64,000 nucleotides of DNA from Thermoplasmatota archaeon (lineage in GTDB: Archaea; Thermoplasmatota; Penumbrarchaeia; Penumbrarchaeales; Penumbrarchaeaceae): contig JBLIRK010000005.1 of the NCBI GenBank assembly GCA_048569615.1, positions 2,036 to 66,035 of the forward strand, given 5' to 3'. A model generated the notes under the pieces. It was not told the DNA's origin and searched no databases. It saw nothing but the letters and a program-made list of their open reading frames with translations. Positions 39,955 to 54,293 of the stretch are shown here, in pieces. Numbering within the stretch: position 1 is the first letter of the stretch; every line of letters begins with the position of its first letter. A program made the translations under genes and the position numbers.

Positions 39955-40491
39955 ATGAAGGAAGGGGAGCTCGAAGCGTTTTTCATAGAGAGCGGATTTT
40001 CGGATTTCAAGTGGATCGATCCGAAGACGATCGTTCTTGCCCAGTGGGTCAGAATGAAATGCATGTACGGATGCGGCAGTTACGGTACGATCTCCACCTG
40101 TCCCCCGAACGTTCCATCGGTCACGGAATGTGAACGGTTCGTTAAGGAGTATTCCAGATGCGCGGTCTTCCATTTCGAGAAGAAGATGGACCACCCCGAG
40201 GACAGACATGAGTGGACCAGGGAGGTCAACCGGAAGCTCTATGAACTCGAATTGTTCCTTTTCAAATCAGGATATGTGAAGGCATTCCTGCTCCCGATGG
40301 ACACATGCGAGCTGTGCGGGTCCTGCGTTCCCACCAGACAGGACTGCAGACATCTGGAGCAGGCAAGGCCCACTCCGGACGCCCTCGGCATCGATGTCTA
40401 TTCGACCGTCCGGACCATCGGATACCCGATACAGGTGCTCTCCGATTACGATCAGACGATGAACAGGTACGCCTTTCTGCTGGTAGAATGA
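39955..40491 (+). CDS. DUF2284-like predicted metal-binding (Cys-rich) protein
   Basis: CMYGCGSYGTISTCPP and CELCGSCVPTRQDCRH motifs, 178 aa. Confidence 0.6.
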   Translation: MKEGELEAFFIESGFSDFKWIDPKTIVLAQWVRMKCMYGCGSYGTISTCPPNVPSVTECERFVKEYSRCAVFHFEKKMDHPEDRHEWTREVNRKLYELELFLFKSGYVKAFLLPMDTCELCGSCVPTRQDCRHLEQARPTPDALGIDVYSTVRTIGYPIQVLSDYDQTMNRYAFLLVE

Positions 40492-40523: not shown

Positions 40524-41096
40524 TCAACCCAATATCTTCTTTAGCTCGATGAGATCGCCTGACCTTCCATCGATCCTTGCCAGCAGTTCGGTCGGGTCGT
40601 CGTAATAGGGCATTATTCCGATGTTCCATTCACATCCACCATTATCGGACTTGTCTCCTAGGAGATAGAGGAACGTAAGATGGATGTCCTTTCCCTTTTC
40701 GATATAATCCCTGTTCGTTAGCTCCTGTCTTGCAGTTGACACTGCACTGGTGGAATCCACCGACCAGTTCCTCACGGGAGCCTTCGAGAGCGGCTCCCCT
40801 GTCTCCTCCTCTATGCTCCCGTCTCCTGAGACAGTGAAGGCGACCGAGCCCAGAGGGAAGCCCGATGTGACATCGTTGTAGGCGAACTTCCACTTAACCG
40901 CTCTCCCGTCGCTTCCGGGCTCAACCGCAGTGACGACGACAAGAGATAGCTCCTTTCCGGTCTGCTCAACCCTCGTCCTCACAGTGGGATGATGTTTGAA
41001 AGCGGACATGCCCTCTTCTTCCCCGGAGCTCCCCAGGCATCCGCATATGAAAAGAATTACCGCGGCTCCAGCGAAGAGAATTGGAATTCTATTCAT
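40524..41096 (-). CDS. Putative lipoprotein (signal peptide plus lipobox-like ICGCLG), last gene of the coupled cluster
   Basis: MNRIPILFAGAAVILFICGCLGSSGEE. ATGA overlap with the upstream activase gene. Confidence 0.5.
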   Translation of the reverse strand: MNRIPILFAGAAVILFICGCLGSSGEEEGMSAFKHHPTVRTRVEQTGKELSLVVVTAVEPGSDGRAVKWKFAYNDVTSGFPLGSVAFTVSGDGSIEEETGEPLSKAPVRNWSVDSTSAVSTARQELTNRDYIEKGKDIHLTFLYLLGDKSDNGGCEWNIGIMPYYDDPTELLARIDGRSGDLIELKKILG

Positions 41097-41896
41097 TTTT
41101 TCGCTTCGCCTCCGTGCTTTTCAAGATACTCGGCGGCAAGGATCGCCGCCCCTGTGGCTGTAACTATCTGAGGGTTCTCTGGAACGTGCATCTTCCTTCC
41201 CAGCTCCTTCTCCATCGCATGCACCATGCCTATGTTCTTCGCGGGCCCCCCGTCGAAGAATATCACATCCCTTATCCCAACCTTCTTGGCCATGGCTACA
41301 AGCCTTCTAGCCACGGCCTTGTGTATGCCCATGATTATATCCTCCTTGGGATGGCCCTGGAAGATGAGGTTCGCAACCTCGGACTTGGCGAATACCAGGC
41401 ATGTGGTTGTTATGTCCACAGGGTCCCTGCTGGTGAGCGAGATCGGACCGAGGTCGTCGAGGGGAACCTCAAGCACCTTTGCAAGCACCTCCAGGAACCT
41501 TCCCGTCCCGGCCGCGCACTTGTCGTTCATGGCGAAGTTGATCATCTGCAGGTCGTCGTCCAGTGCTATGACCTTTGTGTCCTGGCCCCCGATATCTATT
41601 ATGGTCCGGACATTCAGTTCGGAGCCCAGCCACTGGACCCCTCTTGCATTAGCAGAGATCTCGCTGATGTTGTGTTCAGCGAGGGAGGTCACCCTCCGAC
41701 CGTAACCTGTGGACATGATCATCTCGATCTCCTCCCTCCTGACACCAGCCATTGCCATGGCCTCGTCAAGGACCTTCCTCGATGTGATGTCGTGGTCGTG
41801 GCCTGTGGGAGCGACGCCGTGCCCAATCCTCTTCCCGTCCATGACTATGGCGGATTTCACGTAGGTGGATCCCAGGTCCACTCCGGCGGTCATCAT
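41093..41896 (-). CDS. HgdC/BcrA/BcrD-type ATPase (CoA-substrate-specific enzyme activase), copy B. ORF 41093..42382 is trimmed to Met at 41896.
   Basis: MMTAGVDLGSTYVKSAIV is the ASKHA phosphate-1 motif. NDKCAAGTGRF and TTTCLVFAKSE preserve the two Cys that bridge the [4Fe-4S] cluster in HgdC. TGATG overlap with the upstream gene. The 162 upstream codons of the ORF are Arg/Gly-rich low complexity overlapping the neighbour, so they are read-through. Confidence 0.85.
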   Translation of the reverse strand: MMTAGVDLGSTYVKSAIVMDGKRIGHGVAPTGHDHDITSRKVLDEAMAMAGVRREEIEMIMSTGYGRRVTSLAEHNISEISANARGVQWLGSELNVRTIIDIGGQDTKVIALDDDLQMINFAMNDKCAAGTGRFLEVLAKVLEVPLDDLGPISLTSRDPVDITTTCLVFAKSEVANLIFQGHPKEDIIMGIHKAVARRLVAMAKKVGIRDVIFFDGGPAKNIGMVHAMEKELGRKMHVPENPQIVTATGAAILAAEYLEKHGGEAKK

Positions 41897-42783
41897 CACT
41901 TCCACCTCAGCAGTCTGTCCAGCAGTTTTGTTCTCTCCACCTTCACTTCTCCCTTGTCGTTCTCCCTCAATTTCAACGGTGAGCTCCGGGGTCTGGGAGC
42001 CGATAAAGCAGCCCCCAGGGCCCCTACTAAATGCGGCTCCTCGGGCACCATCATCTCCCTGTTTATGTCCTTCCTTATTTCCTCCACCACTCCCTTGTTC
42101 CTGGCGACACCCCCGCAGATCATGACCTTCCCCTTGCTCTGCGTCGAATTCACCAGGGCGATAATCTTCCTTGCCACCATCTGGTGGAGGCCCGCAAGTA
42201 TGTCGTCGGTCCTCTTTCCCTTGGCGATCAAGGACACGACCTCCGATTCCGCGAACACCGTGCAGGTGGCGTTCACGTGCTCCGCCAGCTTCGAGTGCAG
42301 GGATCGCTCGCCGACGTCGCCGATCTCCATCTCCAGGGCCATCGCCAAGGTGTCCATGAAGCAGCCTGTCCCCGTGGAGCACTTGTCGTTGGTCCTGAAA
42401 TCCGAAATGATCCCCATATCTCCCATCCTCATGGCCCTTACTCCGTGCCCCCCAATGTCAACGACGATCTCAACGTCCGGAACTAGAAAGAACGCGCCCT
42501 TGGCGAAGGAGGTGATATCCGTACGGGCCATGTCGGCGAAATCCAGGGACCTCCTGCCCTGACCGGTCGCCACGATGTAGCCGATATCGTTTCTCTTCAA
42601 TCCTTTCTGTTCGAGGAGCTGCTCCATGAGCCCCGAGGCGAGCTTTCCGGGCTCCATGGTGGTGTTTCCCAATACCGAACCCGCCACCTCCTTCCCGTTC
42701 TCAAGGAGGAGCACTTTGGTGGAGATCGCGCCGACATCTATGCCCAGGTCGTAGGGCTTCCCGGAAATAATTTCCCCGCTCAT
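41896..42783 (-). CDS. HgdC/BcrA/BcrD-type ATPase (activase), copy A
   Basis: YDLGIDVGAISTKVLLL, NDKCSTGTGCF and VNATCTVFAESEV. ATGA overlap with the upstream HgdB-like gene. Confidence 0.85.
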   Translation of the reverse strand: MSGEIISGKPYDLGIDVGAISTKVLLLENGKEVAGSVLGNTTMEPGKLASGLMEQLLEQKGLKRNDIGYIVATGQGRRSLDFADMARTDITSFAKGAFFLVPDVEIVVDIGGHGVRAMRMGDMGIISDFRTNDKCSTGTGCFMDTLAMALEMEIGDVGERSLHSKLAEHVNATCTVFAESEVVSLIAKGKRTDDILAGLHQMVARKIIALVNSTQSKGKVMICGGVARNKGVVEEIRKDINREMMVPEEPHLVGALGAALSAPRPRSSPLKLRENDKGEVKVERTKLLDRLLRWK

Positions 42784-44099
42784 CTGCCTGCCTCTTTGAA
42801 CTCCCTTCTAGCCTTGATCATCTCGACGAAGGCCTCCACCCTCGTCCTTACCTGCTCTATGTCGCCTTCGTCGTATTCGGATTCCAGCTTCACCATTGGG
42901 ATGCCCATCTCCCTGAGCTCCAGCTCGATCTTCGTCGCTTCCAGATTGTTCAGGTGGCACCCCCTCAATGTATGGAACACGACCCCCTCGATGCCGTAGG
43001 CCTTGATGGAGGTCTTGAGCCTCCTTAGCCTGTCCTCGTTGGGGCTGAAACATGGACAGGTACACGGAAAGAAATACCTCTCCGCTATTGCCTGAAGCAT
43101 CTCCTTCATGGTCCATCCCTCCAGCATCACGGGATCGGACATCAGCCTGAAACCGGTGCAAAGCTCGTCCGTCACGATGGTCCCGCCGGATTCCTCTATG
43201 ACGGTGGGGATCTTGAAGTTGGGGTACATCATGGGAGAGCCCGCAAGGAGTATCCTGGCCGCGCCCTCCTCCCCCGCCTGTATCGCCTTATCCTGCATCC
43301 CGTTCAGTTCGGATAAGAGCTCCCTTACCTTCTTGTTCCATCTGTCTATCCGGTCTATCTGGGAAGCCTGGACCACGAGCATGGCATCCCTGCCGGAGAT
43401 GGGGGGCTTATCTTTCCTTCGGATCTCCAGGAGCTTTGTCCAGAGCTCATTGGACTCGTTCCATTTCTCCACTTCCCTTCTGAGCTTCCGTTTGGTTATC
43501 TTATTCCCTGTTAGCTCCTCCAGCCTCTTCTTCAGATAGACTATCTCCGATACCCATAGCTTCGATGAGGTCTCCCCGATCTTGACCCTGGGTATGTTCA
43601 TCATAACAACGGGGACGAAATCCTCCAGGATCTCGGCCAGCTTCATCTTGCCGTCGCAGGTCGCGGGTCCCGCGACCATGTCCACCAGGTCCGCCACCGG
43701 ATTGGAGGAAACCATCTTCGTTCCCAGGGTGGCCTTTACCATGGGGCACAATCCCGCATCCCCCAGGAGCTCGTTGGCCGGATGGACAGGCTCGTAATAA
43801 CCGGAGCACAACCTAAGCCCCTGGGCGCCTGCGGCGCTTATCAGCTCGTAGGGGACCATCACGCATAACGTGCCGACGACCTTCCCTCCCTTCTCCCTGA
43901 ACTCCTTGAGCTCCAGGTACCTTACGCCTCCGTAGCGGTGAACCTCGTCGAAGTAGTTCATGGCCTTTGCCCTGTTCTTCTGGGCCTTCAGGTTCTTCCG
44001 GGAGGCCTCCTCCATCTGCTCGGACCTCTTCCTGGTCCTCGTCCGCTGCTCCTCCGAGAAGTATCCTTCCTTGTCCTTGAGGTACCTGCTGGGCATCAT
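42780..44099 (-). CDS. 2-hydroxyacyl-CoA dehydratase / benzoyl-CoA reductase D-component-like protein (HgdB/BcrC/BadD family). The ORF track extends to 44240, but the start is at the Met overlapping the upstream stop.
   Basis: Family-typical length of about 440 aa. N-terminal LKEFREKGGKVVGTLCVMVPYELI. Cys-containing blocks LCPMVKATLG, ELCTGFR and FPCTCPCFSPNED. C-terminal GIEGVVFHTLRGCH. ATGA overlaps on both sides. Confidence 0.6.
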   Translation of the reverse strand: MMPSRYLKDKEGYFSEEQRTRTRKRSEQMEEASRKNLKAQKNRAKAMNYFDEVHRYGGVRYLELKEFREKGGKVVGTLCVMVPYELISAAGAQGLRLCSGYYEPVHPANELLGDAGLCPMVKATLGTKMVSSNPVADLVDMVAGPATCDGKMKLAEILEDFVPVVMMNIPRVKIGETSSKLWVSEIVYLKKRLEELTGNKITKRKLRREVEKWNESNELWTKLLEIRRKDKPPISGRDAMLVVQASQIDRIDRWNKKVRELLSELNGMQDKAIQAGEEGAARILLAGSPMMYPNFKIPTVIEESGGTIVTDELCTGFRLMSDPVMLEGWTMKEMLQAIAERYFFPCTCPCFSPNEDRLRRLKTSIKAYGIEGVVFHTLRGCHLNNLEATKIELELREMGIPMVKLESEYDEGDIEQVRTRVEAFVEMIKARREFKEAGR

Positions 44100-45088
44100 C
44101 CTCCTCCTTTTCTGCTCGTATCCTTCTTCTTCTTGTTGATGAGGCCGAGAGCGGTCCTCTTCGGCCTCTTCGAGCTCACGATCCCGAAGGGACCATACAT
44201 CAGGGACAGGCAGTCCTTCTCGGGGCAGAGCTCCACGCATCTGCCGCAGAGTGTGCAGTCCTCCCCGGCGACATCGTCCTTCTCCATGTCCTCGTACACC
44301 TTATCGTGGTCCAGGGGGCAGACCCTGAGGCAGACGCGGCATCTTGTGCATTTCTCCGGGTCCTTCTTCAGCCAGGCAAGGGACGCACCGCTCAGAAGCG
44401 CCATCGCCCCGCCCATGGGGCAGATGCGGCAGAATGCCATCTTGATGAAGAAGGACGCCACCAGGAACAGCACCAGAATGACCAGTGCAAGGACGGGAAG
44501 CGTCGTCGTCCACGGCTCCAGACCGAATATCTGCTGGGTGACCGTAAAGAAACCCTTTGCGGGACAGACCTGACAGAAGGGGAGCGCCAGCGTTGACTGG
44601 CAGCCCATGATACCAAGGGCGGATATGCCGATGGGAATCGAAAGAAGGATCGTAAGGAAGATTATCACGTACTTGATCCGCCGGAGAACGACCCTGTGGC
44701 TCCATCTCAGCTTGTATGCGGGGATACCTGTCCTCTCCCGGAGCCACCCCATGAACTCCTGGACCATCCCGAAGGGGCAGAGCCAGGAGCACCAGAGCCT
44801 TCCCAGAAGGATGATCAGTATCAGGACCACCATGACCATGATCAGCACGTCAACGTAGCTGTTGTAGTAGCCCTGTGTGAGCCCGTCCTGGAGCTGATAA
44901 TAGAAGCAGGATGTCGGTGTGGTGTTGATATACCTGCAGGAGGCGTTGGGAAGGAATATCCTGCGGAGAAGGGGATATGTTCCAAAAGGGGGGAGACCGA
45001 GGAGCTGGCTTAGAATGAAACCCAGGGCAAGCCCCTGGACCGCGAACCTCCAAGGCCTGATCCTTGTCCCCTTGAACTCCCCCTTCAC
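44096..45088 (-). CDS. NapH/MauN-like membrane polyferredoxin: TM helices, a CSWLCPFG motif and two C-terminal 4Fe-4S ferredoxin motifs. The start is uncertain; GTG 45088 is proposed.
   Basis: LWCSWLCPFGMVQEF is the NapH/FixG-type motif. CQVCPAKG, CRICPMG, CTRCRVCLRVCP and CTLCGRCVELCP are present. The first 105 codons of ORF 44096..45403 are Arg/Gly-rich and overlap the upstream gene, so they are rejected. GTG at 45088 abuts the upstream stop (GTGA). Confidence 0.65.
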   Translation of the reverse strand: MKGEFKGTRIRPWRFAVQGLALGFILSQLLGLPPFGTYPLLRRIFLPNASCRYINTTPTSCFYYQLQDGLTQGYYNSYVDVLIMVMVVLILIILLGRLWCSWLCPFGMVQEFMGWLRERTGIPAYKLRWSHRVVLRRIKYVIIFLTILLSIPIGISALGIMGCQSTLALPFCQVCPAKGFFTVTQQIFGLEPWTTTLPVLALVILVLFLVASFFIKMAFCRICPMGGAMALLSGASLAWLKKDPEKCTRCRVCLRVCPLDHDKVYEDMEKDDVAGEDCTLCGRCVELCPEKDCLSLMYGPFGIVSSKRPKRTALGLINKKKKDTSRKGGG

Positions 45089-46380
45089 CCCCGTGCCCTC
45101 CTTTTCCTGATATGGTGTATCCAGAGCCTTGAAAGGACGGCAAGCTGGGCGATGAGGACAGCCACCAGCGCAAGCTGTACCACCTTCATCCACTGGACCA
45201 GGTCGTCGATCTCGCCGAGCACCGCCTCCGTCCTCTTGGTCTTTCCGTCGATAATATATACGTGGGGGGTGACGTAGCCCGATGTGTAATCGCCTTTGCC
45301 TATGTATCCGCCCTGTCCGGCGATTATCTCCATTTCCCCGTCCCTGTCCGGATCGGCGATCACGACACCCAGCACATCCCTTCCGAGCTCCCCGGAGGTC
45401 CATTCCAGGACCCTTGTCTCGGCATCGTAGACCCTGATGTAACCCGCCATGTTCGAAACGACGATCTCCAACGTCCCGTCGTCATCGACGTCCCCGATAT
45501 CGAGCCCGTAGGCCTTCGGGCCGATGTTCCCGCTCTTCCATACCTGGACGAAGTCATTGCCGTCGTAGGTGAAGATGAAGCACCATCCGTCCCTGTACCT
45601 GTACCCGTTTGAAACCACCATCTCCAGGACTCCGTCGCCGTCGAGGTCCACGACCTTCAAACCTTCAACACATCCTCCGAGATCGGGGCTCTTCCATTTC
45701 AGATCCCCAGTTTCCAGGTCGAATATCCTGATGTAGCCCTCTCCCCGGATATCTCCGAGCGACACTCCGGATGTGACGATCAGCTCCTCCTTCCCGTCCT
45801 GGTCAAGGTCGGCGATATCGATCTCCCTCAGCCTCGAATCGAAGGGCTCGAGCTCCCTGTAGGGATCGGATGAATTGTGCTCGAAGAAGTAGACCTGCCC
45901 CCATCCCTGGTCCGTCTTGAAACCCGACCCTACGATGAGCTCGTTCTCGCCGTCCCCGTCGACATCATGGAGGAGCAGGCCGTGGGCATCCCTGACTAGA
46001 GTCACTGATTCCCATTCGATCTCCTTCGTCCGTCCGTCCAGTGCCCTGACGTTCCCGTCACCGTCCCCGATGATGATCTCCATGGAATCGTCATTGTCGA
46101 ACTGGCCGGCCCTGAGGCCCCAGCACCGGGTCCCGAACCTGGGTGAGGTCCAGTCAACGGAGTAATCACCCCCGGCATATTCGACGGAGGTCACGTATCC
46201 GTCGTAAGAGCCGAAAAGTATCTCGTCCCTTCCGTCTCCGTCAACATCCTCGCATATGATGGACTGGAACCTTCCGATGCCGGAGGTGAGCTCCCTGGGC
46301 TCCACCACGGCTGATGCGGGCTGAAAGAATATCATCATCATCAGCAGGATGCAAAGGAAGTGAGGGAACCGCCCCTTCAT
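45085..46380 (-). CDS. FG-GAP/VCBS beta-propeller protein with signal peptide and C-terminal TM anchor. ORF 45085..46581 is trimmed to Met 46380.
   Basis: MKGRFPHFLCILLMMMIFFQPASA is a signal peptide. Blades EDVDGDGRDEILFGS, HDVDGDGENELIVGS, ADLDQDGKEELIVTS, VDLDGDGVLEMVVSN, GDVDDDGTLEIVVSN and ADPDRDGEMEIIAG. C-terminal LALVAVLIAQLAVL then RKRRARG. The trimmed start gives an ATGA overlap with the upstream stop. Confidence 0.7.
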   Translation of the reverse strand: MKGRFPHFLCILLMMMIFFQPASAVVEPRELTSGIGRFQSIICEDVDGDGRDEILFGSYDGYVTSVEYAGGDYSVDWTSPRFGTRCWGLRAGQFDNDDSMEIIIGDGDGNVRALDGRTKEIEWESVTLVRDAHGLLLHDVDGDGENELIVGSGFKTDQGWGQVYFFEHNSSDPYRELEPFDSRLREIDIADLDQDGKEELIVTSGVSLGDIRGEGYIRIFDLETGDLKWKSPDLGGCVEGLKVVDLDGDGVLEMVVSNGYRYRDGWCFIFTYDGNDFVQVWKSGNIGPKAYGLDIGDVDDDGTLEIVVSNMAGYIRVYDAETRVLEWTSGELGRDVLGVVIADPDRDGEMEIIAGQGGYIGKGDYTSGYVTPHVYIIDGKTKRTEAVLGEIDDLVQWMKVVQLALVAVLIAQLAVLSRLWIHHIRKRRARG

Positions 46381-47573
46381 CCCCTGGACCTCCGGATCTC
46401 CCTGTATGCGGGATAGAAGAATGCGACCAAGGCAGCTGCCCCGATAATGATGAGGGATACGGCGGTGATGGTCCCGATGGGAAGTCCGTCCCCCTCTCCC
46501 GCTTCGCCGCCGAATCCGTAGAGTATGACGGTATGGCTCTTTCCCAGTCCAGAGGCCAGGAACCTGCCGTCCGGGGACCACCTTGACATCATCACCATGG
46601 CATGCTGCTCCATACCGTCCTTGATCACTTTCAGTTCGGTACCGGTCACGGAATCCCTTATCTTCAGAGTGAGGTCAACACCGGAGGTGGCAGCTATCTC
46701 CTGAAAGGGGTGGAAATCGACGGACCTGACGCAGTTGTTGTCGGACCATGTGGCGAGGATCTCGCCGGTGGATGAGTTCCAGACCTTGATCTTGTAATCC
46801 CTGGAGCCGGTGATGAGCCTTGAATCATCCGGAGACCAGTCGATGTCCAGAACACCTGTGGTATGCCCGGTCGCGTTCATCACCTCGGTCCTTGTGGAGA
46901 ACTCCATGATCCTTATCATCCTGTCATCGGATGCGGATGCGAGCCTGTCACCCTCGTTCGACCATCTCACTGCGAGCACTCCATCCCTGTGCCAGTTGAG
47001 GGTGTGGTAGAGCCTGCCTGTCTGCATGTCCCATATGCGGACAGCGTTCTCCTCCTGGTTCTGCGGGATGACCTTGTCCCTCCCCGAGCCGGACGCCAAG
47101 TATCTGCTGTCAGGGGAGAAATCGAGGCAGAGGATGGAGCCGGAGTGCCCCCTCAGCATGTACTTCTCCTCCCAGGTCGCCGTATCGAACACGGTTATAA
47201 TGCGGTCGTCCCCGCCCACAGCCAGGAGCTTTCCGTCGGGGGAGAAGCAGCAGGCGCGGAGCGGATTCGTCCCCTCGGGGGAGAACCCGTCGCATCTCGT
47301 ATCCTCCGGGACGAGGTCGAGCACGGTCCTGATCCCACCGTCAGTGGCGTTCAGAACCACGCATTTATCGTCGAAGAACGTGGCGGCGATCATCGATCCG
47401 TCGGGGGACCACGACAGCTTCCAGAATGTCGCCTCGCTGTCCTCCTTGGTGTACATCCAGATGACCTCCGCCCTTGCCGGATCTATTTCCGCTACCTGGG
47501 CTGCTGCGGGATTCAAGGGCAGAAGGAGGATGAGCAGTCCGAATGCTGTCGCCGGAATGACGGCTATTTTCAT
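46377..47573 (-). CDS. WD40-repeat beta-propeller protein with signal peptide and C-terminal TM anchor
   Basis: LRGHSGSILCLDFSPDSRYLASGS, VRIWDMQTGRLYHTLNWHRDGVLAVRWS and TGHTTGVLDIDWSPDDSRLITGSRDYKIKVWN. N-terminal MKIAVIPATAFGLLILLLPLNPAAAQ. C-terminal AVSLIIIGAAALVAFF then REIRRSRG. Confidence 0.8.
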   Translation of the reverse strand: MKIAVIPATAFGLLILLLPLNPAAAQVAEIDPARAEVIWMYTKEDSEATFWKLSWSPDGSMIAATFFDDKCVVLNATDGGIRTVLDLVPEDTRCDGFSPEGTNPLRACCFSPDGKLLAVGGDDRIITVFDTATWEEKYMLRGHSGSILCLDFSPDSRYLASGSGRDKVIPQNQEENAVRIWDMQTGRLYHTLNWHRDGVLAVRWSNEGDRLASASDDRMIRIMEFSTRTEVMNATGHTTGVLDIDWSPDDSRLITGSRDYKIKVWNSSTGEILATWSDNNCVRSVDFHPFQEIAATSGVDLTLKIRDSVTGTELKVIKDGMEQHAMVMMSRWSPDGRFLASGLGKSHTVILYGFGGEAGEGDGLPIGTITAVSLIIIGAAALVAFFYPAYREIRRSRG

Positions 47574-49231
47574 GTAAGCACCTCCCTCTCCTCGTTCCGG
47601 TTCCTCAAGTAAACAACTAAGGTGACGAATCCGGTTAGCAAGTTCAGGCCGGCGATCACCGCTATTATGATACCGTTGCTCAAGCGACCGCTTTTATCGA
47701 CTGTTGACGAAGCTGTTTCGTCATCTGCCTCCTCCCCGGGCTCCACGATTACATTGGCGGAGGCCGTTCCCGGCTCCAACCCTTCCTTCACGACTTCCAA
47801 TTCGATATTGACCGTCGACCTCGAGCTGACCCTGATGGGGAAGTAGAATACCTCGACCTCCCCCTCCTCGTTGGTCAAGTATTTCAACCTCGTATTGCCA
47901 TCCTTGTCAAAGGCAATGTACCCAGCGGAAATGGAGAAGGTGACCTCAGCTCCCTCGACGGGGGAGCCCTCGTTATCGGTCACCCTTACGATCATGGATG
48001 TGGAATTGTCGGAGGTTATCTCCTTATCCGTTGTGTTGATGGCCGCAGACAGACCGGGCGGGCGGACCCCAACGCAGTAAACGGACCGGTCCGAGGAGCC
48101 GAAATATACCCTTTCCAGGTAGATGACGGGTGATGAATAGACATAACCCCCGGTCGAGAAGGTCCATACCAGGTCCCCGTTGGTCTCGTTGAAGCAGTAG
48201 AGGTTGTAGTCGTCGGAGCCGATGAACAATTTCCCATCCGAGACCACGGGGGACGAGCCCCCCTGGAAATCATGGGTGGGGGAGGACCAGATCACCTCGT
48301 CTTCGGAGATGTTGCCGTCCGAATCAGGGTCATCGATCGGAAGGCACCATGTGTACTCGAAGGACCCGAAGAATACCCTGTCATCTCTGACGATCGGTGT
48401 GGAATAGGTATCGTGGCCAGTGAAGAAGGACCATTTAATATCCATGGTATCCGGGTCCACATTGTAGATCCTCTGGTCCATCCCTGCGGTCAGCAGCAGA
48501 TTATCATCATGGAGCACTCCGGAGGAATACACCTCGGCATACTCCCCGAACTCCACCTTGTCCAGTACCTCTCCGTCGTCCAGCGATAGCCTGTAGAGGC
48601 TCCTTCCGGTGTCCCCGATGAAGAGCACCCCCCTTTCCTCGTCTACGATCCCCGAGGCCCAAATGGGAAGGTCGGATATCGGAGACCTCCAGATCTCCTG
48701 TCCCTCCTTAGATAATCTGTACACGATCCCGGCCAGGTCCGAGAAGATGACCGAATCCCCGAAGGCGTGGGCCGAGGATTTGATCTCTCCCTCGGTCTCG
48801 AAGGACCAGAGGGTCTCAGGTTCGGAGGTCGATCCCTCCGGTGGAAGCGAGATGCAGTAGAAATTGCGGTCAAGTGATCCGAAATATCCCCTGCCATTCT
48901 CCAGAAGGACCGTTGCTTGTACATCGTCCCCCGACTTGAACTTCCAGTTCATACTCCCGGTCACGGGGTCCAGGCAGTAGACCCAGTCGTCCTCCGAGCC
49001 AATGACCAGACCGCCTGGGTAGAAAGTGGGAGAGGAGAGAACCTGACTCCCGGTGTCGAAGGACCATATCAATTCGCCCTTCTCAGGAGCATCCCCGTCT
49101 TCAAGGGCCAGGTGCAGGGGGTCCCCCCTCCACTGGCTCCATGCGCCCTCTGAGGGATCCGAACCCGTGAAGGATATAAAGAGGAGGAGAACTAGGATGG
49201 CCGCCGCTGTGATCTTGGAAATAGAGCTCAT
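47570..49231 (-). CDS. PQQ-like (BamB/YxaL-type) beta-propeller repeat protein with a C-terminal Ig-like domain and TM anchor
   Basis: Repeats of the type (W/Y)(S/K)F.TG..(V/I).SSP. and the linker GDLVWTFSTGGYVYSSPVIY. Signal peptide MSSISKITAAAILVLLLFISF. C-terminal IIIAVIAGLNLLTGFVTLVVYL then RNRNEE. Confidence 0.7.
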   Translation of the reverse strand: MSSISKITAAAILVLLLFISFTGSDPSEGAWSQWRGDPLHLALEDGDAPEKGELIWSFDTGSQVLSSPTFYPGGLVIGSEDDWVYCLDPVTGSMNWKFKSGDDVQATVLLENGRGYFGSLDRNFYCISLPPEGSTSEPETLWSFETEGEIKSSAHAFGDSVIFSDLAGIVYRLSKEGQEIWRSPISDLPIWASGIVDEERGVLFIGDTGRSLYRLSLDDGEVLDKVEFGEYAEVYSSGVLHDDNLLLTAGMDQRIYNVDPDTMDIKWSFFTGHDTYSTPIVRDDRVFFGSFEYTWCLPIDDPDSDGNISEDEVIWSSPTHDFQGGSSPVVSDGKLFIGSDDYNLYCFNETNGDLVWTFSTGGYVYSSPVIYLERVYFGSSDRSVYCVGVRPPGLSAAINTTDKEITSDNSTSMIVRVTDNEGSPVEGAEVTFSISAGYIAFDKDGNTRLKYLTNEEGEVEVFYFPIRVSSRSTVNIELEVVKEGLEPGTASANVIVEPGEEADDETASSTVDKSGRLSNGIIIAVIAGLNLLTGFVTLVVYLRNRNEEREVLT

Positions 49232-49339: not shown

Positions 49340-50626
49340 CTATCCCTTTCTTATCCTCCTGTATCTCTTCCAGAATACGGCGAGGATGACACCGATGATG
49401 ATCGCGACTGCAAGGGCGAGGAAGAGCATATCCCTGTTTGCGCTCACCTCCCGCCCGATATCGAATGCGTCGTCCCCATCATCATCATCGGTAACCGGAA
49501 TGTTCTGCCTGAGGCATCTTACATACCCGTTCCTGTCCCCGAAGAAGACCTTGGAGCCGTATGCCGACGGGGAGACCTCGCTGGCATCCCCGTATTCGAA
49601 GCTCCGGTAGATGCTTCCGTTCCCCATATGGACCATGACCAGCCCCTGTTCACAGGTCGCATATACGAGCTTCCCGCCTATTACGGGGGATGTCTCAAGC
49701 TGGGAAGGACCGAGGTCAAGGGTCCATTCTATCGAACCATATTCTGCATCCAGGCAGTAGAGGAGCCCGTCATTGGCCCCGACCATAACCTTCTCGGCGT
49801 TTACGGCAGGTGAGGATTGGATGTCGCCTCCCAGGGCGGTGCTCCAGATGAGCTCCCCGTCCCCGGCGTCAAGGCAGTACATGTTGCTGTCGTAGGAGCC
49901 GAAATATATCCTTCCTTCCATGATCGCGGGTGAGGATGGAATGTAAGCAGCGGAGAAGTTCCATTTATGCTCCCCGGTCAATGCATCCAGACATCTCAGC
50001 ATCCCGTCGCAGGAACCGAAATATAGGTTGTTGTCATGGACGGCAGGGGTTGTGTGTATCCATCCCTGGCATCCGATGTAATCCCAAGAGGGGGTCCCAT
50101 CCGGTTTCAGGCTGTAGAACTTAGAATCATAGGATCCGAAATAGATCATGTCGCCGGGTCCGTTGGGGGAGGAAATGATCTCCTTCCCCGATCCCGTATC
50201 AAAGGTCCATAGCTGCGCTCCTTCTTCCATGGAGAGCGCCGTCACCATACCAGAACTGTCGCACACTGCGAGATCGTTCGTTTCCTCGATATACAGGGGT
50301 GTCGAGAATATAGGTGCTCCGACGTTGTAGCTCCATTCCAGGCTCCCGAACTCCGAATTCAGCTTGTAAACCGTCCCGTTGGAGGTGCCGAACACGCACC
50401 AGCCTTCCTCAGCGATGACTGCGGTGCCGATGGATGAATCCGCCCGGAACTCCCAGGACAGGAAGACCTCTCCCTTCAACGGATCTGAAAGGTCGGTGGT
50501 GGTTCTTCCCGTATTCGACGGATCTCCCCTGAAGCTGTTCCAGCCTAGCGCAGCGGGACCCGCAACCATCAATATCGACAGGAGAATCGAAAGGATCGCC
50601 CCTGTCCTTCCAGGGGAGCACTTCAT
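49340..50626 (-). CDS. Second PQQ-like beta-propeller repeat protein with signal peptide and C-terminal TM anchor; the ORF could extend to 50698
   Basis: MKCSPGRTGAILSILLSILMVAGPAALG is a signal peptide. Repeats LEWSYNVGAPIFSTPLY, QLWTFDTGSGKEIISSP, HKWNFSAAYIPSSPAI and LIWSTALGGDIQSSPAV. C-terminal LALAVAIIIGVILAVFW then KRYRRIRKG. Confidence 0.7.
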   Translation of the reverse strand: MKCSPGRTGAILSILLSILMVAGPAALGWNSFRGDPSNTGRTTTDLSDPLKGEVFLSWEFRADSSIGTAVIAEEGWCVFGTSNGTVYKLNSEFGSLEWSYNVGAPIFSTPLYIEETNDLAVCDSSGMVTALSMEEGAQLWTFDTGSGKEIISSPNGPGDMIYFGSYDSKFYSLKPDGTPSWDYIGCQGWIHTTPAVHDNNLYFGSCDGMLRCLDALTGEHKWNFSAAYIPSSPAIMEGRIYFGSYDSNMYCLDAGDGELIWSTALGGDIQSSPAVNAEKVMVGANDGLLYCLDAEYGSIEWTLDLGPSQLETSPVIGGKLVYATCEQGLVMVHMGNGSIYRSFEYGDASEVSPSAYGSKVFFGDRNGYVRCLRQNIPVTDDDDGDDAFDIGREVSANRDMLFLALAVAIIIGVILAVFWKRYRRIRKG

Positions 50627-50678
50627 GGAGATAGAACCAGTTCGACTGGGATTAAAAGCTTGCGCTCTCATAAGTTCG

Positions 50679-53600
50679 TCACCTTCTGAATACCGCATCG
50701 TATCCCTTCACCGCCCACATCGAGGAGGCGATGCCTATTACGAGGGAGGCCAGAAGAAAACCTCCGGGGATCAGGATTATGGGTGCCGCCATATCGGGGG
50801 TCAGGAAGGCAGAATCGGACATGGTGAAAAAGACGAGTGCTCCCGCCGCCGATCCCGCAATCGCACCTAGCAGAGCGATCATGAAGACCGCCAGGTTCTC
50901 CAGCAGGAAATACATGACGGATCTTCCTTTGGGGGCCCCTATTGTCCTCAGCAGGGAGATCTCCTTTCTCATGTCCACGGCCCTCGCATGGGTGAAAACA
51001 ACAGCCGAGGCGAGGGAGAGTATCACGCCCAGCAAGAGGAAGTCCCGGAACAGGTAAAGGTACGAGAGCTCGTACCTGGCATTTTCCAGGGCAAGGTCCC
51101 TGACCGGCGTTATCAGGGGAGAGAAATCCTCGAAGATCCCCTCAACGGCTTCCTTGCCCCCTCCGTTCGCCCTGACTAGGAAATAATCCGGTGCGGCCGT
51201 GGAGGGGAAGAGGTCCTTCAGAAAGGTAGAAGAGAGAACGAAGCTCCCGGTGAACACGGAGGACTCCAGGACACCCACGACAACAAGGGTCACCCTCTCT
51301 CCGTTCTCGGTGTCCAGCTTGAACTCCGAACCCAGCTTCTCGTAGTATATCCATGCAAGTGTGTTCTGATCCACGAGGATGGGTATCCTTCCGTCGATCT
51401 TCGAATGGAGCATCTCCCAAGCTTCCTTATCGCTTCCCATGCCCTTTCTTCTCTCCATAAGCCCGAAGCCCGATACGTTCGAGAAGCCCTCCCGGACACC
51501 AAGGAGCCTGGGAGGATAGACGGCATTGACGTTGGAGCAGGTCCCCCCCTCCGAGCCGACGGAGAGCAAGGATTCAACATCCATTGCTCCGGACCGCAGC
51601 TCTCCCCTGAAGGGAACCGGGAGCTCCACCACGTAATCGAATCCGCCCCCGTAATCGCCTATCCCATCCTCCGCATCCGCTTCTAGCATGGCACCGATAA
51701 CGGTCAGTGAGAGTGAAATGGTGAGAGCCATGGCAAGGATGGAGATGGTAAGCGGATGCTTCCTCGGCCTTCTCGTGATATTGGCGCTCACAATGAGAAG
51801 CAGATCGCTTCTTCTGGACACCCTTGACGCAATAAGGTAGATAAGGAGAGCGGTCCCGGCTGAAAACACGATGGAGCCCAGTGTGAACAATAGTCCCTTC
51901 GCATAGATATCATCGGAACCGGAGCCAGACACAAGCAGGGCAATACCAATTATGATGGATGCCCCCGAAGCTCCGAAGTGGAGAAGCCTGCCTCTCATTG
52001 TCGGGCTTCCCACGGAGATGTCCTCTTCCCTCAGGTTGACCGCGGGAACACTGCCGGTCTCCCTCCAGACCGCAATGAGGGACAGGACCATGGATGAGAT
52101 CACTCCGATCGATATCGAGATGAGGACAGTGCCTGCCGAGACCGAGAAGGGGACGGAGGAGTTCTCAACGGAATCAGACCAGGCCGAGGAGAGCCCCGCG
52201 TTCAGGACGAAGGAGAATACGAATCCCACCGGCAGTCCGATAAGGCTTCCCGCCACGATGCTCCAGGCGGATTCGACCAAGGCCGCCTGGAACAGCCCTC
52301 TCCTTCCGGCCCCTATCGAGCGGAGTATCCCCCACTCATGTGACCGTCTAGCCGCCATATCCTTGATCACGGCATACAGCGTAAGGAGGGCACCGGCGAT
52401 CATTACCGTTCCGAATGAAAGGAACATTCCCGGAAAGATGAGCATGGCGCGGGATGATTCCAGAGCCCTTTCCCGGACGGGGACCAGGCTGATACCCATC
52501 GAAGAGTGGTCAAGCCCGTCCCCAATATTATCTAATTCTCCTTGGACATCCTCTCCCCGGACCAAGAGAGCGTTTGAATCACCGTAGCTTCCCGCCCACA
52601 TCTCCCTTGCGTCCTCCAGGCTCACGAAGCATTTTGGGGTTGTCCTGTAAATGTCCCAGTATTCGAGGTCTGCCTCCCCGAGAGAATCGAGGTCTAGGTC
52701 GAATGATGGATCCCACTCGTTGCAGGACGGGGCATCAGTCACCCCCTCGATCGGGGGCAGGAATCCCGGCTCCATACCGATTCCGGTCATGTTGTAGACG
52801 GCGGCGACCCTGAACGTCCTTTCCTCCTCCCGCAGCTCCCCGAGGAGGGTCACCTTCCTGTAGGAGACCACGATATCATCACCGATGGAAAGCCCCATCC
52901 TTTCGGCGGTCCAGTTGTTGACCGCTATTTCGCCGGTTCCCGGCAGGGGGCCGGATCCTTGAGGTCCAATCATCTCGAGCTCCTCCATCAGACCGGGCCG
53001 GACCCCGGAGACAACGGAATACGAGAGCTCCCCGTTCCCGGATGCCAGTGAATCAACGAAATACGAGAGCGAGAGCCCTTCATTCCCTTCTTCCGTCAGG
53101 TCCGTCTCGTCGAAGAACAGGCCGTCGCTGTAGATGAAGGAGCCTCCGCTGGATAGGGATCCCACCACCCTGAAGCCCGCCTCATCTAGACCCACGGCGT
53201 CGTCAAGAAGGGACATTATGGAATCCATGATCTTTCCCGAGCCGCCGTCCGATACGGTATCTATCAGTACCGTGTTCACCTTCCCGACGATCCCCAGCCT
53301 CTCCTGAACGAGTCCGATATCGACCACCAGGATCGGCTCCACCTTTGCGAGGGAATCCGTCCTGAACCTTCCGATACCCCGGTTCTCGATCACAGCCTCC
53401 ACCGTAAGGTTCAGGGTGATCCTGTCGGACCTGTCAAAACCGAGAAGGCTCTCCTCCCTGGTGGAAAAGGAGGGTACCGATATCCTGATGCCTCCGCCGC
53501 TGCCCTCTTCCAATTTCTTCGAGAGCTCCCTGTTGACGTAGCACCCGTACCTCGGTGGAGCACCCAAGTTATCGGATGATTCCGCCTCTACGGCACCCAG

Positions 53601-54086
53601 CATTTCTAGGTCGTCGTCATCGACGGCCATCAACTTGATGCCGACCGACGATCCCCCTTCCAATTCAGTCCCGATTCCATCGAGGAGGATCAGCGAGCAG
53701 AATGAGTCCACACCCTCGATATCCCCTATTCCTGCCCTTTCCATGAGGGCCTCCGGGACGTACCCCGGGGCCGAGATCATGATGTCAACGCCGGACAGGT
53801 TTGCAGCGGTGTTCTCCTCCACCATCTTCAGAAGGCCGTCGCCGACCGAGAGGGATGCAAGGAATATGCCTACCAGAAGAGCAACAGGAAGCCCCCTGGC
53901 TATACCGGGGCCGAGAGACCGCATTGCGAATTTCATGCCAACGCCCGAAGCCGCTCTGCCCTGCCTTGTCAGCGATCCCGCGATCGCCATAATGAAAAGA
54001 AGGAATACCGCGGCGGAAATCGTAAGGATCGGTATCCAGCCCGGCACCAACTCCATGTTTTTCAATCGGCAAGCGGATATATCCAA
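50679..54086 (-). CDS. Double-module FtsX/MacB-family ABC-type permease (1135 aa) with two large extracytoplasmic domains; no ATPase gene adjacent
   Basis: Two FtsX-like 3-TM bundles are each preceded by a conserved amphipathic segment, (I)LRSIGAGRRGLFQAALVES.. and (L)LRTIGAPKGRSVMYFLLENL... An N-terminal TM is followed by a roughly 450-aa extracellular region. Confidence 0.75.
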   Translation of the reverse strand: MDISACRLKNMELVPGWIPILTISAAVFLLFIMAIAGSLTRQGRAASGVGMKFAMRSLGPGIARGLPVALLVGIFLASLSVGDGLLKMVEENTAANLSGVDIMISAPGYVPEALMERAGIGDIEGVDSFCSLILLDGIGTELEGGSSVGIKLMAVDDDDLEMLGAVEAESSDNLGAPPRYGCYVNRELSKKLEEGSGGGIRISVPSFSTREESLLGFDRSDRITLNLTVEAVIENRGIGRFRTDSLAKVEPILVVDIGLVQERLGIVGKVNTVLIDTVSDGGSGKIMDSIMSLLDDAVGLDEAGFRVVGSLSSGGSFIYSDGLFFDETDLTEEGNEGLSLSYFVDSLASGNGELSYSVVSGVRPGLMEELEMIGPQGSGPLPGTGEIAVNNWTAERMGLSIGDDIVVSYRKVTLLGELREEERTFRVAAVYNMTGIGMEPGFLPPIEGVTDAPSCNEWDPSFDLDLDSLGEADLEYWDIYRTTPKCFVSLEDAREMWAGSYGDSNALLVRGEDVQGELDNIGDGLDHSSMGISLVPVRERALESSRAMLIFPGMFLSFGTVMIAGALLTLYAVIKDMAARRSHEWGILRSIGAGRRGLFQAALVESAWSIVAGSLIGLPVGFVFSFVLNAGLSSAWSDSVENSSVPFSVSAGTVLISISIGVISSMVLSLIAVWRETGSVPAVNLREEDISVGSPTMRGRLLHFGASGASIIIGIALLVSGSGSDDIYAKGLLFTLGSIVFSAGTALLIYLIASRVSRRSDLLLIVSANITRRPRKHPLTISILAMALTISLSLTVIGAMLEADAEDGIGDYGGGFDYVVELPVPFRGELRSGAMDVESLLSVGSEGGTCSNVNAVYPPRLLGVREGFSNVSGFGLMERRKGMGSDKEAWEMLHSKIDGRIPILVDQNTLAWIYYEKLGSEFKLDTENGERVTLVVVGVLESSVFTGSFVLSSTFLKDLFPSTAAPDYFLVRANGGGKEAVEGIFEDFSPLITPVRDLALENARYELSYLYLFRDFLLLGVILSLASAVVFTHARAVDMRKEISLLRTIGAPKGRSVMYFLLENLAVFMIALLGAIAGSAAGALVFFTMSDSAFLTPDMAAPIILIPGGFLLASLVIGIASSMWAVKGYDAVFRR

Positions 54087-54254: not shown

Positions 54255-54293
54255 GTGAAATGTTCATTTTGGGGTGAAGAGAGCCGTGGGACC

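Follow-up and report, generated by a model that had tools for sequence, protein, structure and literature searches.

A member of the double-cubane cluster protein family encoded with two different HgdC-like ATPase subunits in a Thermoplasmatota operon

Homodimeric double-cubane cluster proteins (DCCPs) form a family with exactly one type of HGD-D subunit (PDB 6ENO; NCBIfam NF040772). The known system has the composition DCCP2:DCCP-R2, with the ATPase cluster located on the twofold axis (PMC9351452). The corresponding loci of Carboxydothermus hydrogenoformans and C. maritimus have been described as a two-gene unit, to which a LysR regulator is added in C. maritimus. In the archaeal locus analysed here, the departure from the studied DCCP system is a pair of different ATPase subunits.

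The window, a 64-kb stretch of DNA, carries on its minus strand between positions 41093 and 44099 one HGD-D gene (42780..44099; 439 aa) and two HgdC-like ATPase genes. The latter encode a divergent HgdC/DCCP-R-type ASKHA ATPase subunit, ATP1 (41896..42783; 295 aa), and a canonical subunit of the same type, ATP2 (41093..41896; 267 aa; ATG at 41896, alternative start at 41893). Profile searches of all six-frame ORFs revealed no HGD-D gene in the window beyond this one and no such ATPase gene beyond these two, and plus-strand ORFs within 41093-44099 gave no family match. The Pfam matches (HGD-D, E=2e-96; BcrAD_BadFG, E=4e-46 and 1e-48) and the junctions, ATGA with a 4 nt overlap between DCCP and ATP1 and TGATG with a 1 nt overlap between ATP1 and ATP2, bear out the gene trio with overlapping start and stop codons described in a sequence-only reading of this DNA.

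That reading had taken the single D-component, where known enzymes use two, as a possible sign of a minimal or novel enzyme. This view does not hold, as the DCCP family uses exactly one. Judged by its sequence, the 439-aa protein is a DCCP, i.e. a member of a known single-subunit family: it scored 360.2 bits against NF040772 (cutoff 350), and an identical protein (P0001) is named double-cubane reductase at NCBI. Since DCCPs are homodimeric, a second D-component subunit is not expected. Residues 40-429 match PDB 7YYL_C (E=6e-73) and 6ENO_A (E=2.5e-72), and comparison of an AF2 model (pLDDT 85.7) with 7YZM_A/6ENO gave TM 0.87/0.90 and an rmsd of 2.1 Å. The cysteine pattern C79-X18-C98-X19-C118-X29-C148-X165-C314-X33-C348-X32-C381 is close to the published 7-Cys motif of DCCPs (PMC7317905). 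Predicted ligands of the [8Fe-9S] cluster are C79, C118, C148, C314, C348 and C381, and C98 would be the seventh, non-ligand cysteine. All six ligand positions are invariant in two alignments, of 23 and 31 homologues. Both half-sites retain Cys triads, which indicates a double cubane and not a substrate-binding [4Fe-4S]-OH2 site. The C-terminal RGCH motif, previously thought degenerate, is indeed present, but its C381 is an invariant cluster ligand in relatives, and the motif is therefore not degenerate.

Both ATPases exceeded the TIGR00241 cutoff of 125 bits (ATP1, 195; ATP2, 241). ATP1 matched HadI (PDB 4EHT) with E=3e-56, and ATP2 matched HadI with E=2e-62 and DCCP-R (7YYL_E) with E=7e-39. 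Alignment over 251 aa gave a mutual identity of 33%, near the 35% estimated by eye in the sequence-only reading, and the motifs quoted there were found: the ASKHA motifs DLGSTYVKS and DVGAISTKV, and in both subunits the cluster-Cys motifs (NDKCAAGTG / NDKCSTGTG and TTCLVFAKSE / ATCTVFAESE). The [4Fe-4S] ligands are C135 and C174 in ATP1, and C126 and C165 in ATP2 (C125/C164 with the start at 41893). All nucleotide motifs of ATP2 are intact, and all 29 orthologues show them in canonical form. In ATP1 the phosphate-binding loops are altered (DVGAISTK, DIGGHGVR, GTGCF), and a tail of some 30 aa extends the C-terminus. In each of its 32 non-identical orthologues the GST Thr is replaced by Ile, Leu or Val, the GGQD Asp by Gly, the Lys by Arg, and the GTGRF Arg by Cys, Thr or Ser, while both cluster cysteines are kept (32/32). 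In DCCP-R, the ATP phosphates are bound at S9-N11 and Q92-D94, the positions changed in ATP1. ATP2, for its part, has Lys in place of the cluster-helix Glu (VFAKSE). Paired loci of all three kinds have Glu at this position in one subunit and Lys, Arg or Gln in the other; the single-ATPase loci examined (n=4) retain Glu. ATP1 and ATP2 fall into two deep orthologue clades, with the ATP1 clade separate. Within the module, conservation is highest for ATP2 (65-87% identity).

The trio is the tail of a larger conserved archaeal operon, which was absent from the sequence-only reading and whose membrane polyferredoxin and four cell-surface propellers hint at the role of the enzyme. Its order is FtsX-like permease, four membrane-anchored β-propellers, NapH-like polyferredoxin, DCCP, ATP1 and ATP2, all on the minus strand, and overlaps of 1-4 nt link eight consecutive genes. 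The first gene encodes an FtsX-domain permease (50679..54086; about 1135 aa; Pfam FtsX) with many TM helices, which is syntenic at 24-44% identity. A TATA-like TTATATATAA is present in the 168-nt spacer upstream of it, and no ABC ATPase gene was found beside it. The propellers comprise two PQQ_2/BamB-like proteins, a (49340..50698; 452 aa; Pfam-assigned; N-terminal anchor) and b (47570..49231; 553 aa; Pfam PQQ_2, Beta-prop_ACSF4 and Big_1; Ig-like domain), a WD40 protein (46377..47573; 398 aa; Pfam WD40, E=3e-47) and an FG-GAP protein (45085..46380; 431 aa; Pfam FG-GAP_3, E=2.5e-22) that overlaps each neighbour by 4 nt. An N-terminal signal/anchor in the latter two and a C-terminal TM helix in all four were predicted, and all four genes are syntenic in related loci.

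The NapH/MauN-like membrane polyferredoxin (44096..45088; 330 aa) begins with a GTG codon that overlaps the stop codon of the gene upstream, and is joined to DCCP by an ATGA overlap. Hydropathy and an N-terminal hydrophobic stretch suggest about four TM helices. The protein contains cytoplasmic CX3CP (C100/C104) and CX2CP (C220/C223) motifs, two CX2CX2CX3CP [4Fe-4S] motifs and outer-loop Cys pairs (C51/C61, C172/C175). It matches Pfam Fer4_5 (E=1e-17) and Fer4_10; NapH models scored 90-94 bits, below their cutoffs. Its gene immediately precedes DCCP in 33 of 34 close genome loci and in all 13 distant ones, and a NapH-seeded search found DCCP directly downstream in 34 of the 46 metagenome loci with room for it. 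At the other end of the operon, a 190-aa signal-peptide protein (40524..41096, minus strand) has a start codon that overlaps the ATP2 stop codon (ATGA). It had no Pfam or NCBIfam match and occurred in eight of the related loci retrieved (35-51% identity); given its confinement to close relatives, it is probably a lineage-specific accessory.

Among the 30 related Thermoplasmatota loci with a DCCP at least 50% identical, 27 have ATP1 and ATP2 downstream of it. Fusion of ATP1 to the DCCP C-terminus occurs in some relatives (P0051-type proteins), where a free ATP2 gene comes next. Propellers, NapH and DCCP with no adjacent ATPase are seen in some related clades (DCCP 44-48% identical); in one of these genomes, the ATPase pair is located at a distance of about 20 kb.

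On balance, we favour an ATP-driven low-potential reductase of the DCCP type, in which a DCCP homodimer and an ATP1-ATP2 heterodimer would operate with a NapH-like donor in a membrane-associated system. A BcrA/BcrD-like heterodimer had been proposed before: the two distinct cluster-binding ATPases are present, and the heterodimer as such is likely, being favoured by comparative evidence, namely the conserved pair, the asymmetric motifs, the fusions and the coupled genes. Our inferences on electron route, electron direction and type of substrate are as follows. Electrons would pass from the NapH-like protein, a co-translated partner, through its cytoplasmic 2x[4Fe-4S] domain to a [4Fe-4S] cluster bridging the ATPase dimer, with two cysteines from each subunit. 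ATP2 would be the catalytically canonical motor and ATP1 its specialised partner, whose phosphate-binding loops are altered and which is fused to DCCP in some lineages. ATP hydrolysis would then push electrons into the double cubane ([8Fe-9S]) of the presumably homodimeric DCCP, where a small substrate would be reduced. The trio would thus constitute the cytoplasmic end of a system with four surface propellers and an FtsX-like permease. Gene adjacency suggests the NapH-like protein as donor, and electrons could flow in reverse; proteins of the NapH family usually deal with electrons at the quinol level. The DCCP-ATP1 fusions have a 1:1:1 stoichiometry, which is hard to square with one ATPase dimer per DCCP dimer; they could instead pair two ATP1 domains.

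These fusions are also one reason to consider two separate homodimers, with ATP2 as the true hydrolysing DCCP reductase and a hydrolysis-impaired ATP1 homodimer docked on DCCP as relay or regulator: DCCP dimerisation would set two ATP1 domains on the twofold axis, the DCCP-R2 site in 7YYL, and with both cysteines present, an ATP1 homodimer might bridge a cluster without ATP2. Every HgdC, HadI or DCCP-R protein characterised so far is homodimeric (PMC7317905, PMC9351452). However, two dimers would compete for one docking site, the two ATPases are strictly co-conserved and translationally coupled, the split between cluster-helix Glu and Lys/Gln is confined to paired systems, and MbdPQ and BcrAD set a precedent as heterodimeric ATPases in which one subunit has diverged, so that we regard this arrangement as unlikely. 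Benzoyl-CoA reductases (BCRs) and 2-hydroxyacyl-CoA dehydratases share the superfamily (Pfam HGD-D, BcrAD_BadFG), BcrAD likewise comprises two different ATPases, homologues are annotated 'BcrC/BadD/HgdB' by JGI, and 'bcrABCD' genes have been reported in Thermoplasmatota MAG studies. A minimal or novel CoA-ester radical enzyme of either type with one BcrC/HgdB-like subunit is nevertheless highly improbable because scores fell far below the family cutoffs (BcrC 80/421, BzdN 82/454, HadC 90/700), and neither ATPase is orthologous to BcrA, BcrD or BzdQ (123 vs 313; 183 vs 380). Moreover, the window contains no BcrB/BzdO/HgdA-type catalytic subunit, a tblastn survey of syntenic loci found no second HGD-D gene beside DCCP, and the Cys triads do not mark a [4Fe-4S]-OH2 site.

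Electrons might instead flow outwards, with the ATPases and DCCP acting as an ATP-boosted electron store and relay that feeds the NapH-like protein and, through it, on the far side of the membrane, the outer Cys pairs and the four propellers, much as NosR, NapH and RdhC serve extracytoplasmic enzymes. The double cubane of BzdN serves both electron transfer and electron storage and is not an active site; the outer-loop Cys pairs, including a CxxCP, are conserved in 76-80% of 50 NapH-like sequences; propellers are tied to NapH-DCCP even without adjacent ATPases; and DsbD_2-type transmembrane thiol-electron carriers adjoin ATPase genes in two distant lineages. Yet no extracytoplasmic reaction is known to require electrons at potentials below about -600 mV, the DCCP has the N-terminal extension of the small-molecule-reducing C. 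hydrogenoformans enzyme, the propellers matched no known cofactor-binding family in Pfam, and they are absent from bacterial NapH-DCCP-ATPase loci. Outward flow thus appears quite doubtful.

The NapH-like protein resembles NapH/MauN/NosR/RdhC-type proteins in its four TM helices, its cytoplasmic CX3CP-type motifs and the 2x[4Fe-4S] ferredoxin domain at its C-terminus. It differs in its linkage to DCCP, its extra outer-loop Cys pairs and its scores against NapH/MauN cutoffs (90 vs 213); no nap, nos or rdh genes were found nearby. Desulfobacterota modules (e.g. Desulfosarcina ovata AP021879.1) have the same order of NapH-like protein, DCCP and ATPase and conserved cluster ligands, but a single canonical ATPase with the cluster-helix Glu and neither propellers nor FtsX; their neighbours are TonB receptor, radical SAM, DsbD_2 and nitrogenase-like genes. 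Among 2-hydroxyacyl-CoA dehydratases and their activators (HgdAB/HgdC, HadBC/HadI; PDB 3O3M, 4EHT, 1HUX), HadI is the best PDB match of both ATPases and the helix-cluster-helix cysteines are conserved; these dehydratases, however, are α-β heterodimers that hold [4Fe-4S] and [4Fe-5S] clusters, and their activator, a homodimer, acts on them only transiently. Class I BCRs (BcrABCD, BzdNOPQ, MbdONPQ; PDB 8S02, 9GAI) have a heterodimeric ATPase module, and MbdP diverges at the same motif positions as ATP1 (GGQTMK, GTGMF). Since ATP1 and ATP2 are both closer to MbdQ and HadI than to MbdP, the asymmetry is a parallel development, not an inherited one. Like the DCCP, BzdN holds a double cubane, but BCRs have two different HGD-D subunits, with a substrate-binding [4Fe-4S]-OH2 cluster in BzdO, whereas here one subunit type has a double cubane per copy. 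Closest is DCCP/DCCP-R of C. hydrogenoformans (CHY_0487/0488; PDB 6ENO, 7YYL, 7YZM), with a single HGD-D subunit, the 7-Cys motif, six [8Fe-9S] ligands, 35% identity in DCCP, the same fold including the N-terminal helices, and a cluster-bridged ASKHA ATPase encoded directly downstream. There, a single gene gives a homodimeric reductase whose two ATP sites are equal; here, there are two paralogous genes, one with altered phosphate-binding loops, and the system also includes surface propellers and a NapH-like membrane polyferredoxin that is translationally coupled to it.

The sequence-only reading had described two HgdC-like ATPase genes with a single partner of the HgdB/BcrC type. Searches of all six-frame ORFs with profile HMMs bore out this inventory. 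Across the 64-kb window they identified one HGD-D gene (42780-44099, minus strand; 439 aa; Pfam HGD-D, E=2e-96) and two ATPase genes, ATP1 (41896-42783, minus strand; 295 aa; Pfam BcrAD_BadFG, E=4e-46) and ATP2 (41093-41896, minus strand; 267 aa; Pfam BcrAD_BadFG, E=1e-48), and no further HGD-D or ATPase genes were found among these ORFs. The trio is genuine, a chance match being excluded because of the Pfam E-values. Start and stop codons overlap within the trio (ATGA at DCCP/ATP1, TGATG at ATP1/ATP2), as had been noted, and an ATGA overlap also joins the DCCP gene to the NapH-like gene upstream; translation of these genes is coupled. On the plus strand, ORFs overlying the region, one of them 493 aa long, had no family match and were interpreted as antisense shadows, the DNA being GC-rich.

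[quoted passage not shown] This identity is already known and annotated: the identical NCBI protein (P0001) is named 'double-cubane-cluster-containing anaerobic reductase [Thermoplasmatota archaeon]'. Against the NCBIfam equivalog NF040772 it scores narrowly above the threshold (360.2 bits, cutoff 350), with the next best family at only 90 bits. Its seven cysteines (C79, C98, C118, C148, C314, C348 and C381), spaced by X18, X19, X29, X165, X33 and X32, appear to form essentially the published seven-cysteine DCCP motif (X19, X18-19, X29, X166-170, X32-34, X32; PMC7317905). The six [8Fe-9S] ligand cysteines align with those of the Carboxydothermus hydrogenoformans DCCP structure 6ENO and are invariant in 23 homologues as well as in 31 more distant ones; the RGCH motif, previously regarded as degenerate, contains one of them, C381. 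The seventh, non-ligand cysteine C98 varies among homologues, and such variation of its equivalent has been described for some DCCP classes (PMC7317905). The best solved relatives are 7YYL and 6ENO from C. hydrogenoformans (E ~1e-72, residues 40-429). An AlphaFold (AF2) model of DCCP (pLDDT 85.7, pTM 0.88) matched 7YZM_A/6ENO with TM scores of 0.87/0.90 (rmsd 2.1 Å, 413 columns) and BzdN and HadC with scores of 0.72-0.76, and it showed the same two Rossmann-like domains as 6ENO together with the helical extension at the N-terminus. The protein has the DCCP fold and the complete set of ligands. Two cognate ATPase genes of the cluster-bridged type lie directly downstream. DCCPs are homodimers of one gene product (PMC7317905, PMC9351452); therefore, a missing second D-component is expected and does not point to a minimal or novel enzyme as had been proposed, and with the predicted identity the central puzzle dissolves.

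The ATPase motifs quoted in the sequence-only reading were all recovered, and the identity between ATP1 and ATP2, put at about 35% by eye, was 33% over 251 aa by alignment. Both proteins exceed the cutoff of the activase domain model TIGR00241 (195 bits for ATP1 and 241 bits for ATP2, cutoff 125.4), and they share PDB matches to HadI, MbdQ, HgdC, MbdP and DCCP-R, the homodimeric ATPase partner of the C. hydrogenoformans DCCP. Orthologues from related loci split into two deep clades, ATP1 and ATP2. When motifs were counted in non-identical sequences only (ATP1, n=32; ATP2, n=29), ATP2 was canonical in 29/29 (DLGSTYxK, DIGGQDTK, NDKCAAGTGRF), and both [4Fe-4S] cysteines were kept in all 32 ATP1 and all 29 ATP2 sequences. 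In ATP1, the Asp of GGQD is replaced by Gly and the following Lys by Arg in 32/32 sequences; the Thr of GST is replaced by Ile, Leu or Val in 32/32 and its Ser by Ala in 27/32, and the Arg of GTGRF is always Cys, Thr or Ser (n=32). ATP phosphates are bound in DCCP-R by S9-N11 and Q92-D94 (PMC9351452), and the ATP1 substitutions fall on these positions (GST corresponding to S9-N11, GGQD to Q92-D94). ATP1 thus has altered predicted phosphate-binding loops beside a canonical ATP2, an asymmetry that is fixed in the sequences compared. ATP1 was rejected as an orthologue of MbdP or BcrD, since MbdQ and HadI give the higher scores with both ATPases; the resemblance to BcrA/BcrD is architectural and was acquired in parallel.

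Related loci were retrieved by a contig scan seeded with a DCCP alignment, a single DCCP sequence as seed having given none. Locus counts are from tblastn on MAG and metagenome contigs, with a few loci representing one contig fetched twice. ATP1 and ATP2 follow DCCP in 27 of the 30 loci with sufficient room (DCCP at least 50% identical), and the pair is a real conserved unit. Across loci, conservation within the module is highest for ATP2 (65-87% identity) and, among the trio, lowest for ATP1 (45-76%). One subclade encodes DCCP-ATP1 fusion proteins of 732-765 aa followed by a free ATP2 gene. Two further kinds of ATPase pair adjoin more distant NapH-DCCP genes: in one (L040/L068 type) both subunits are canonical, and in the other (L077/L095 type) a degenerate subunit (DVGAEDAR) is paired with a canonical one. 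In all three kinds, one subunit has the cluster-helix Glu (VFAESE), where its partner has Lys, Arg or Gln; the Glu is kept in 4/4 single-ATPase loci examined. This split may be the signature of a heterodimer interface. In L002/L039 (9173-9953), ATP2 is split into ORFs of 147 and 111 aa, through a frameshift or pseudogene formation or an assembly error.

The trio forms the tail of a ten-gene operon in which eight consecutive junctions overlap by 1-4 nt. All genes with coordinates in this series lie on the minus strand: an FtsX-domain permease (50679-54086), two PQQ_2/BamB-like propellers (49340-50698 and 47570-49231), a WD40 propeller (46377-47573), an FG-GAP propeller (45085-46380) and a NapH-like membrane polyferredoxin (44096-45088) precede DCCP, and ATP2 is followed by a translationally coupled gene, also on the minus strand, for a 190-aa secreted protein. 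All four propellers have a predicted N-terminal signal or anchor and a C-terminal transmembrane helix. From FtsX to ATP2, the same gene order is found at about 30 loci from Thermoplasmatota MAGs; NapH lies upstream of DCCP in 33/34 loci, and WD40 plus FG-GAP genes do so in 24/25. Despite its coupling, the 190-aa protein was placed outside the core because it is restricted to close relatives. More distant clades keep propellers, NapH and DCCP without adjacent ATPases, and in one closed genome an ATP1-type/second ATPase pair lies about 20 kb from DCCP and adjoins a DsbD_2 gene.

That detached pair (L055; Thermoplasmata archaeon bin33, CP070751.1, 2420170-2436940), with DCCP about 20 kb downstream in L034, has as neighbours a DsbD_2/CcdA-like transmembrane thiol-electron carrier, a NosD-like beta-helix protein and CARDB surface proteins; L055 also has a second, longer NapH-like protein. 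An extra protein of 235-258 aa is encoded between FG-GAP and NapH-like genes in L004 (2916-3692), L006 (5323-6045) and L054 (5232-5939); it has no family match and is absent from the window. A second, paralogous NapH-DCCP-two-ATPase locus occurs in the MAG of L029 (L042, 2673-5990, minus strand), where NapH is directly preceded by the gene for a 656-aa WD40/PQQ-like propeller and a divergent gene (6068-8038, plus strand) encodes a 1105-aa protein with fn3 repeats and an EB_dh domain (ethylbenzene dehydrogenase type). EB_dh domains bind heme.

Several genes flank the operon in the window. Upstream of the FtsX-like gene, a divergent operon (54255-57940, plus strand) encodes a 565-aa acyl-CoA dehydrogenase, EtfB and an EtfA whose N-terminal part is a 2x[4Fe-4S] ferredoxin domain; it looks to be of the Bcd/Etf type and could supply or consume low-potential electrons. 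Envelope proteins are abundant throughout: a giant 2316-aa surface protein (31567-38517, minus strand) has many FG-GAP repeats in its N-terminal half (Pfam E=1e-92) and an array of ~30-aa repeats ('...NNNHLKYMN(A/S)SI(D/x)SDL...') with a terminal transmembrane helix in its C-terminal half, and of two large surface-type proteins (57952-61518 and 61594-63942, both minus strand) one has a transglutaminase-like core with Ig-like domains and the other Big_7. Just past the 3' end of the operon lies a divergent gene for a DUF2284 metal-binding protein (39955-40491, plus strand; Pfam E=7e-46), which is related to the Cys/Sec-rich DUF2284 modules found in proteins of the ArsM/MbdU type, with NCBIfam scores of 65-69 bits that fall far short of the cutoff. 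A connection with the selenocysteine-assisted organometallic (SAO)/DUF2284 systems described by Haft and Gwadz was rejected, and this gene is not considered part of the system because DUF2284 is missing at related loci, except at an unrelated position in L092.

The 330-aa polyferredoxin is predicted to be a relative of NapH rather than a NapH equivalog. It scores 90 against the NapH/MauN model TIGR02163 (cutoff 213) with the architecture and cysteine motifs present, namely about four predicted transmembrane helices and invariant cytoplasmic CX3CP, CX2CP and two CX2CX2CX3CP motifs; two outer-loop cysteine pairs are conserved in 76-80% of 50 sequences. Reciprocally, a metagenome scan was seeded with an alignment of NapH-like proteins. 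DCCP was found directly downstream in 34 of 46 loci with room, and among the 27 loci with room for ATPases, ten had two, 12 had one and five had none; the NapH-DCCP-ATPase module is therefore widespread. The single-ATPase form belongs to Desulfobacterota; Desulfosarcina ovata, strain NaphS2 and Syntrophotalea acetylenica are the named sources of homologues. The D. ovata genes run NapH-like, DCCP, ATPase, DsbD_2, in surroundings with TonB-receptor, radical-SAM and nitrogenase-like genes. The flanks of this module (L136; AP021879.1, 2634647-2647987) comprise a TonB-dependent receptor, radical SAM/SPASM, TPR and DUF4198 proteins, two Oxidored_nitro genes and a NifH-like gene, which may together make up a super-cluster concerned with a cofactor or metal in this cultured organism. 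A contig labelled [Eubacterium] cellulosolvens (L053, CDLUMC010000044.1) has a NapH-DCCP pair and agrees gene by gene in its order with the metagenome locus L054; it begins just upstream of NapH, so that propellers are visible in L054 only, and it is probably a contaminant or mis-binned. Characterised DCCP loci have been described as two-gene units (PMC7317905), and no paper linking DCCP with NapH was found in the literature searched.

With moderate confidence, we favour a mechanism in which ATP1 and ATP2 would pair as a heterodimer around one bridging [4Fe-4S] cluster, with ATP2 as the motor and ATP1 as a specialised partner tethered to DCCP. Electrons would be supplied by the NapH-like protein through its ferredoxin domain, and ATP hydrolysis would boost them and inject them into the [8Fe-9S] clusters, which in turn would reduce a small substrate. 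The window's DCCP has the N-terminal extension that closes the channel, as is typical of the small-molecule DCCP class. Two separate homodimers, ATP1:ATP1 and ATP2:ATP2, would be an alternative arrangement; the geometry of the DCCP-ATP1 fusions would favour ATP1:ATP1. Electrons might also flow outward, through NapH and on to the propellers at the surface, the double cubane then serving as a relay by analogy with BzdN. Going beyond the heterodimer mechanism, a so far undescribed archaeal envelope machine, in which a one-motor ATPase heterodimer and a double cubane are wired via the NapH-like iron-sulfur/thiol protein to four propellers and an FtsX-type permease, is a speculative and rather unlikely proposal.

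A CoA-ester enzyme of the benzoyl-CoA reductase (BCR) or 2-hydroxyacyl-CoA dehydratase (HAD) type was rejected as a rival on the scores of its subunit models and on subunit count. Pfam places the proteins in the same superfamily, but all subunit models remained far below their cutoffs: for the D-component, BcrC 80 (cutoff 421) and BzdN 82 (454); for the ATPases, BcrD 123 (313), BzdQ 183 (380) and BcrA 136 (578); and for HAD, HadC 89.7 (700) and HadB 21.8 (750). Further, the tblastn survey of syntenic loci found no second HGD-D gene beside any module. Class I BCR (BcrABCD/BzdNOPQ) was thus discarded on scores below the equivalog cutoffs and on one HGD-D type in the window in place of two, and HgdAB/HadBC dehydratases on sub-cutoff models and on the lack of a second gene for an alpha+beta pair in the window.

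The DCCP cofactor has been compared to nitrogenase clusters (PMC7317905, PMC9351452). The strictly conserved NapH-like partner and the conserved envelope context offer concrete, testable leads on the physiological function and the electron donor of DCCPs, and the related modules in cultured D. ovata make this biology accessible to experiment. Were the envelope machine real, it would tie very low-potential redox chemistry in the cytoplasm directly to a cell-surface process, and DCCPs would gain a first physiological context. A reductase with one canonical and one altered ATP site would constitute a natural experiment on the ATP spent per low-potential electron in archerase-type enzymes, and the asymmetry parallels the poorly understood ones of BcrAD and MbdPQ. 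Loci with one HGD-D and two BcrAD-type ATPase genes are easily taken for 'bcr' genes, and MAG studies may misread them as such. One study relied partly on bcrABCD annotations in proposing anaerobic aromatic degradation for Thermoplasmatota MAGs; that proposal would be weakened if such genes were recognised as DCCP systems.

What appears to be new here is a DCCP system with a putative two-gene, asymmetric reductase inside a conserved membrane/envelope operon. Relative to the Desulfobacterota module, the archaeal one is extended by a second ATPase and by the envelope genes. With class I BCR it shares two non-identical ATPase subunits (here 33% identical), a likeness of architecture only, whereas BCR combines BcrB/BzdO with BcrC/BzdN and the window holds one HGD-D gene.
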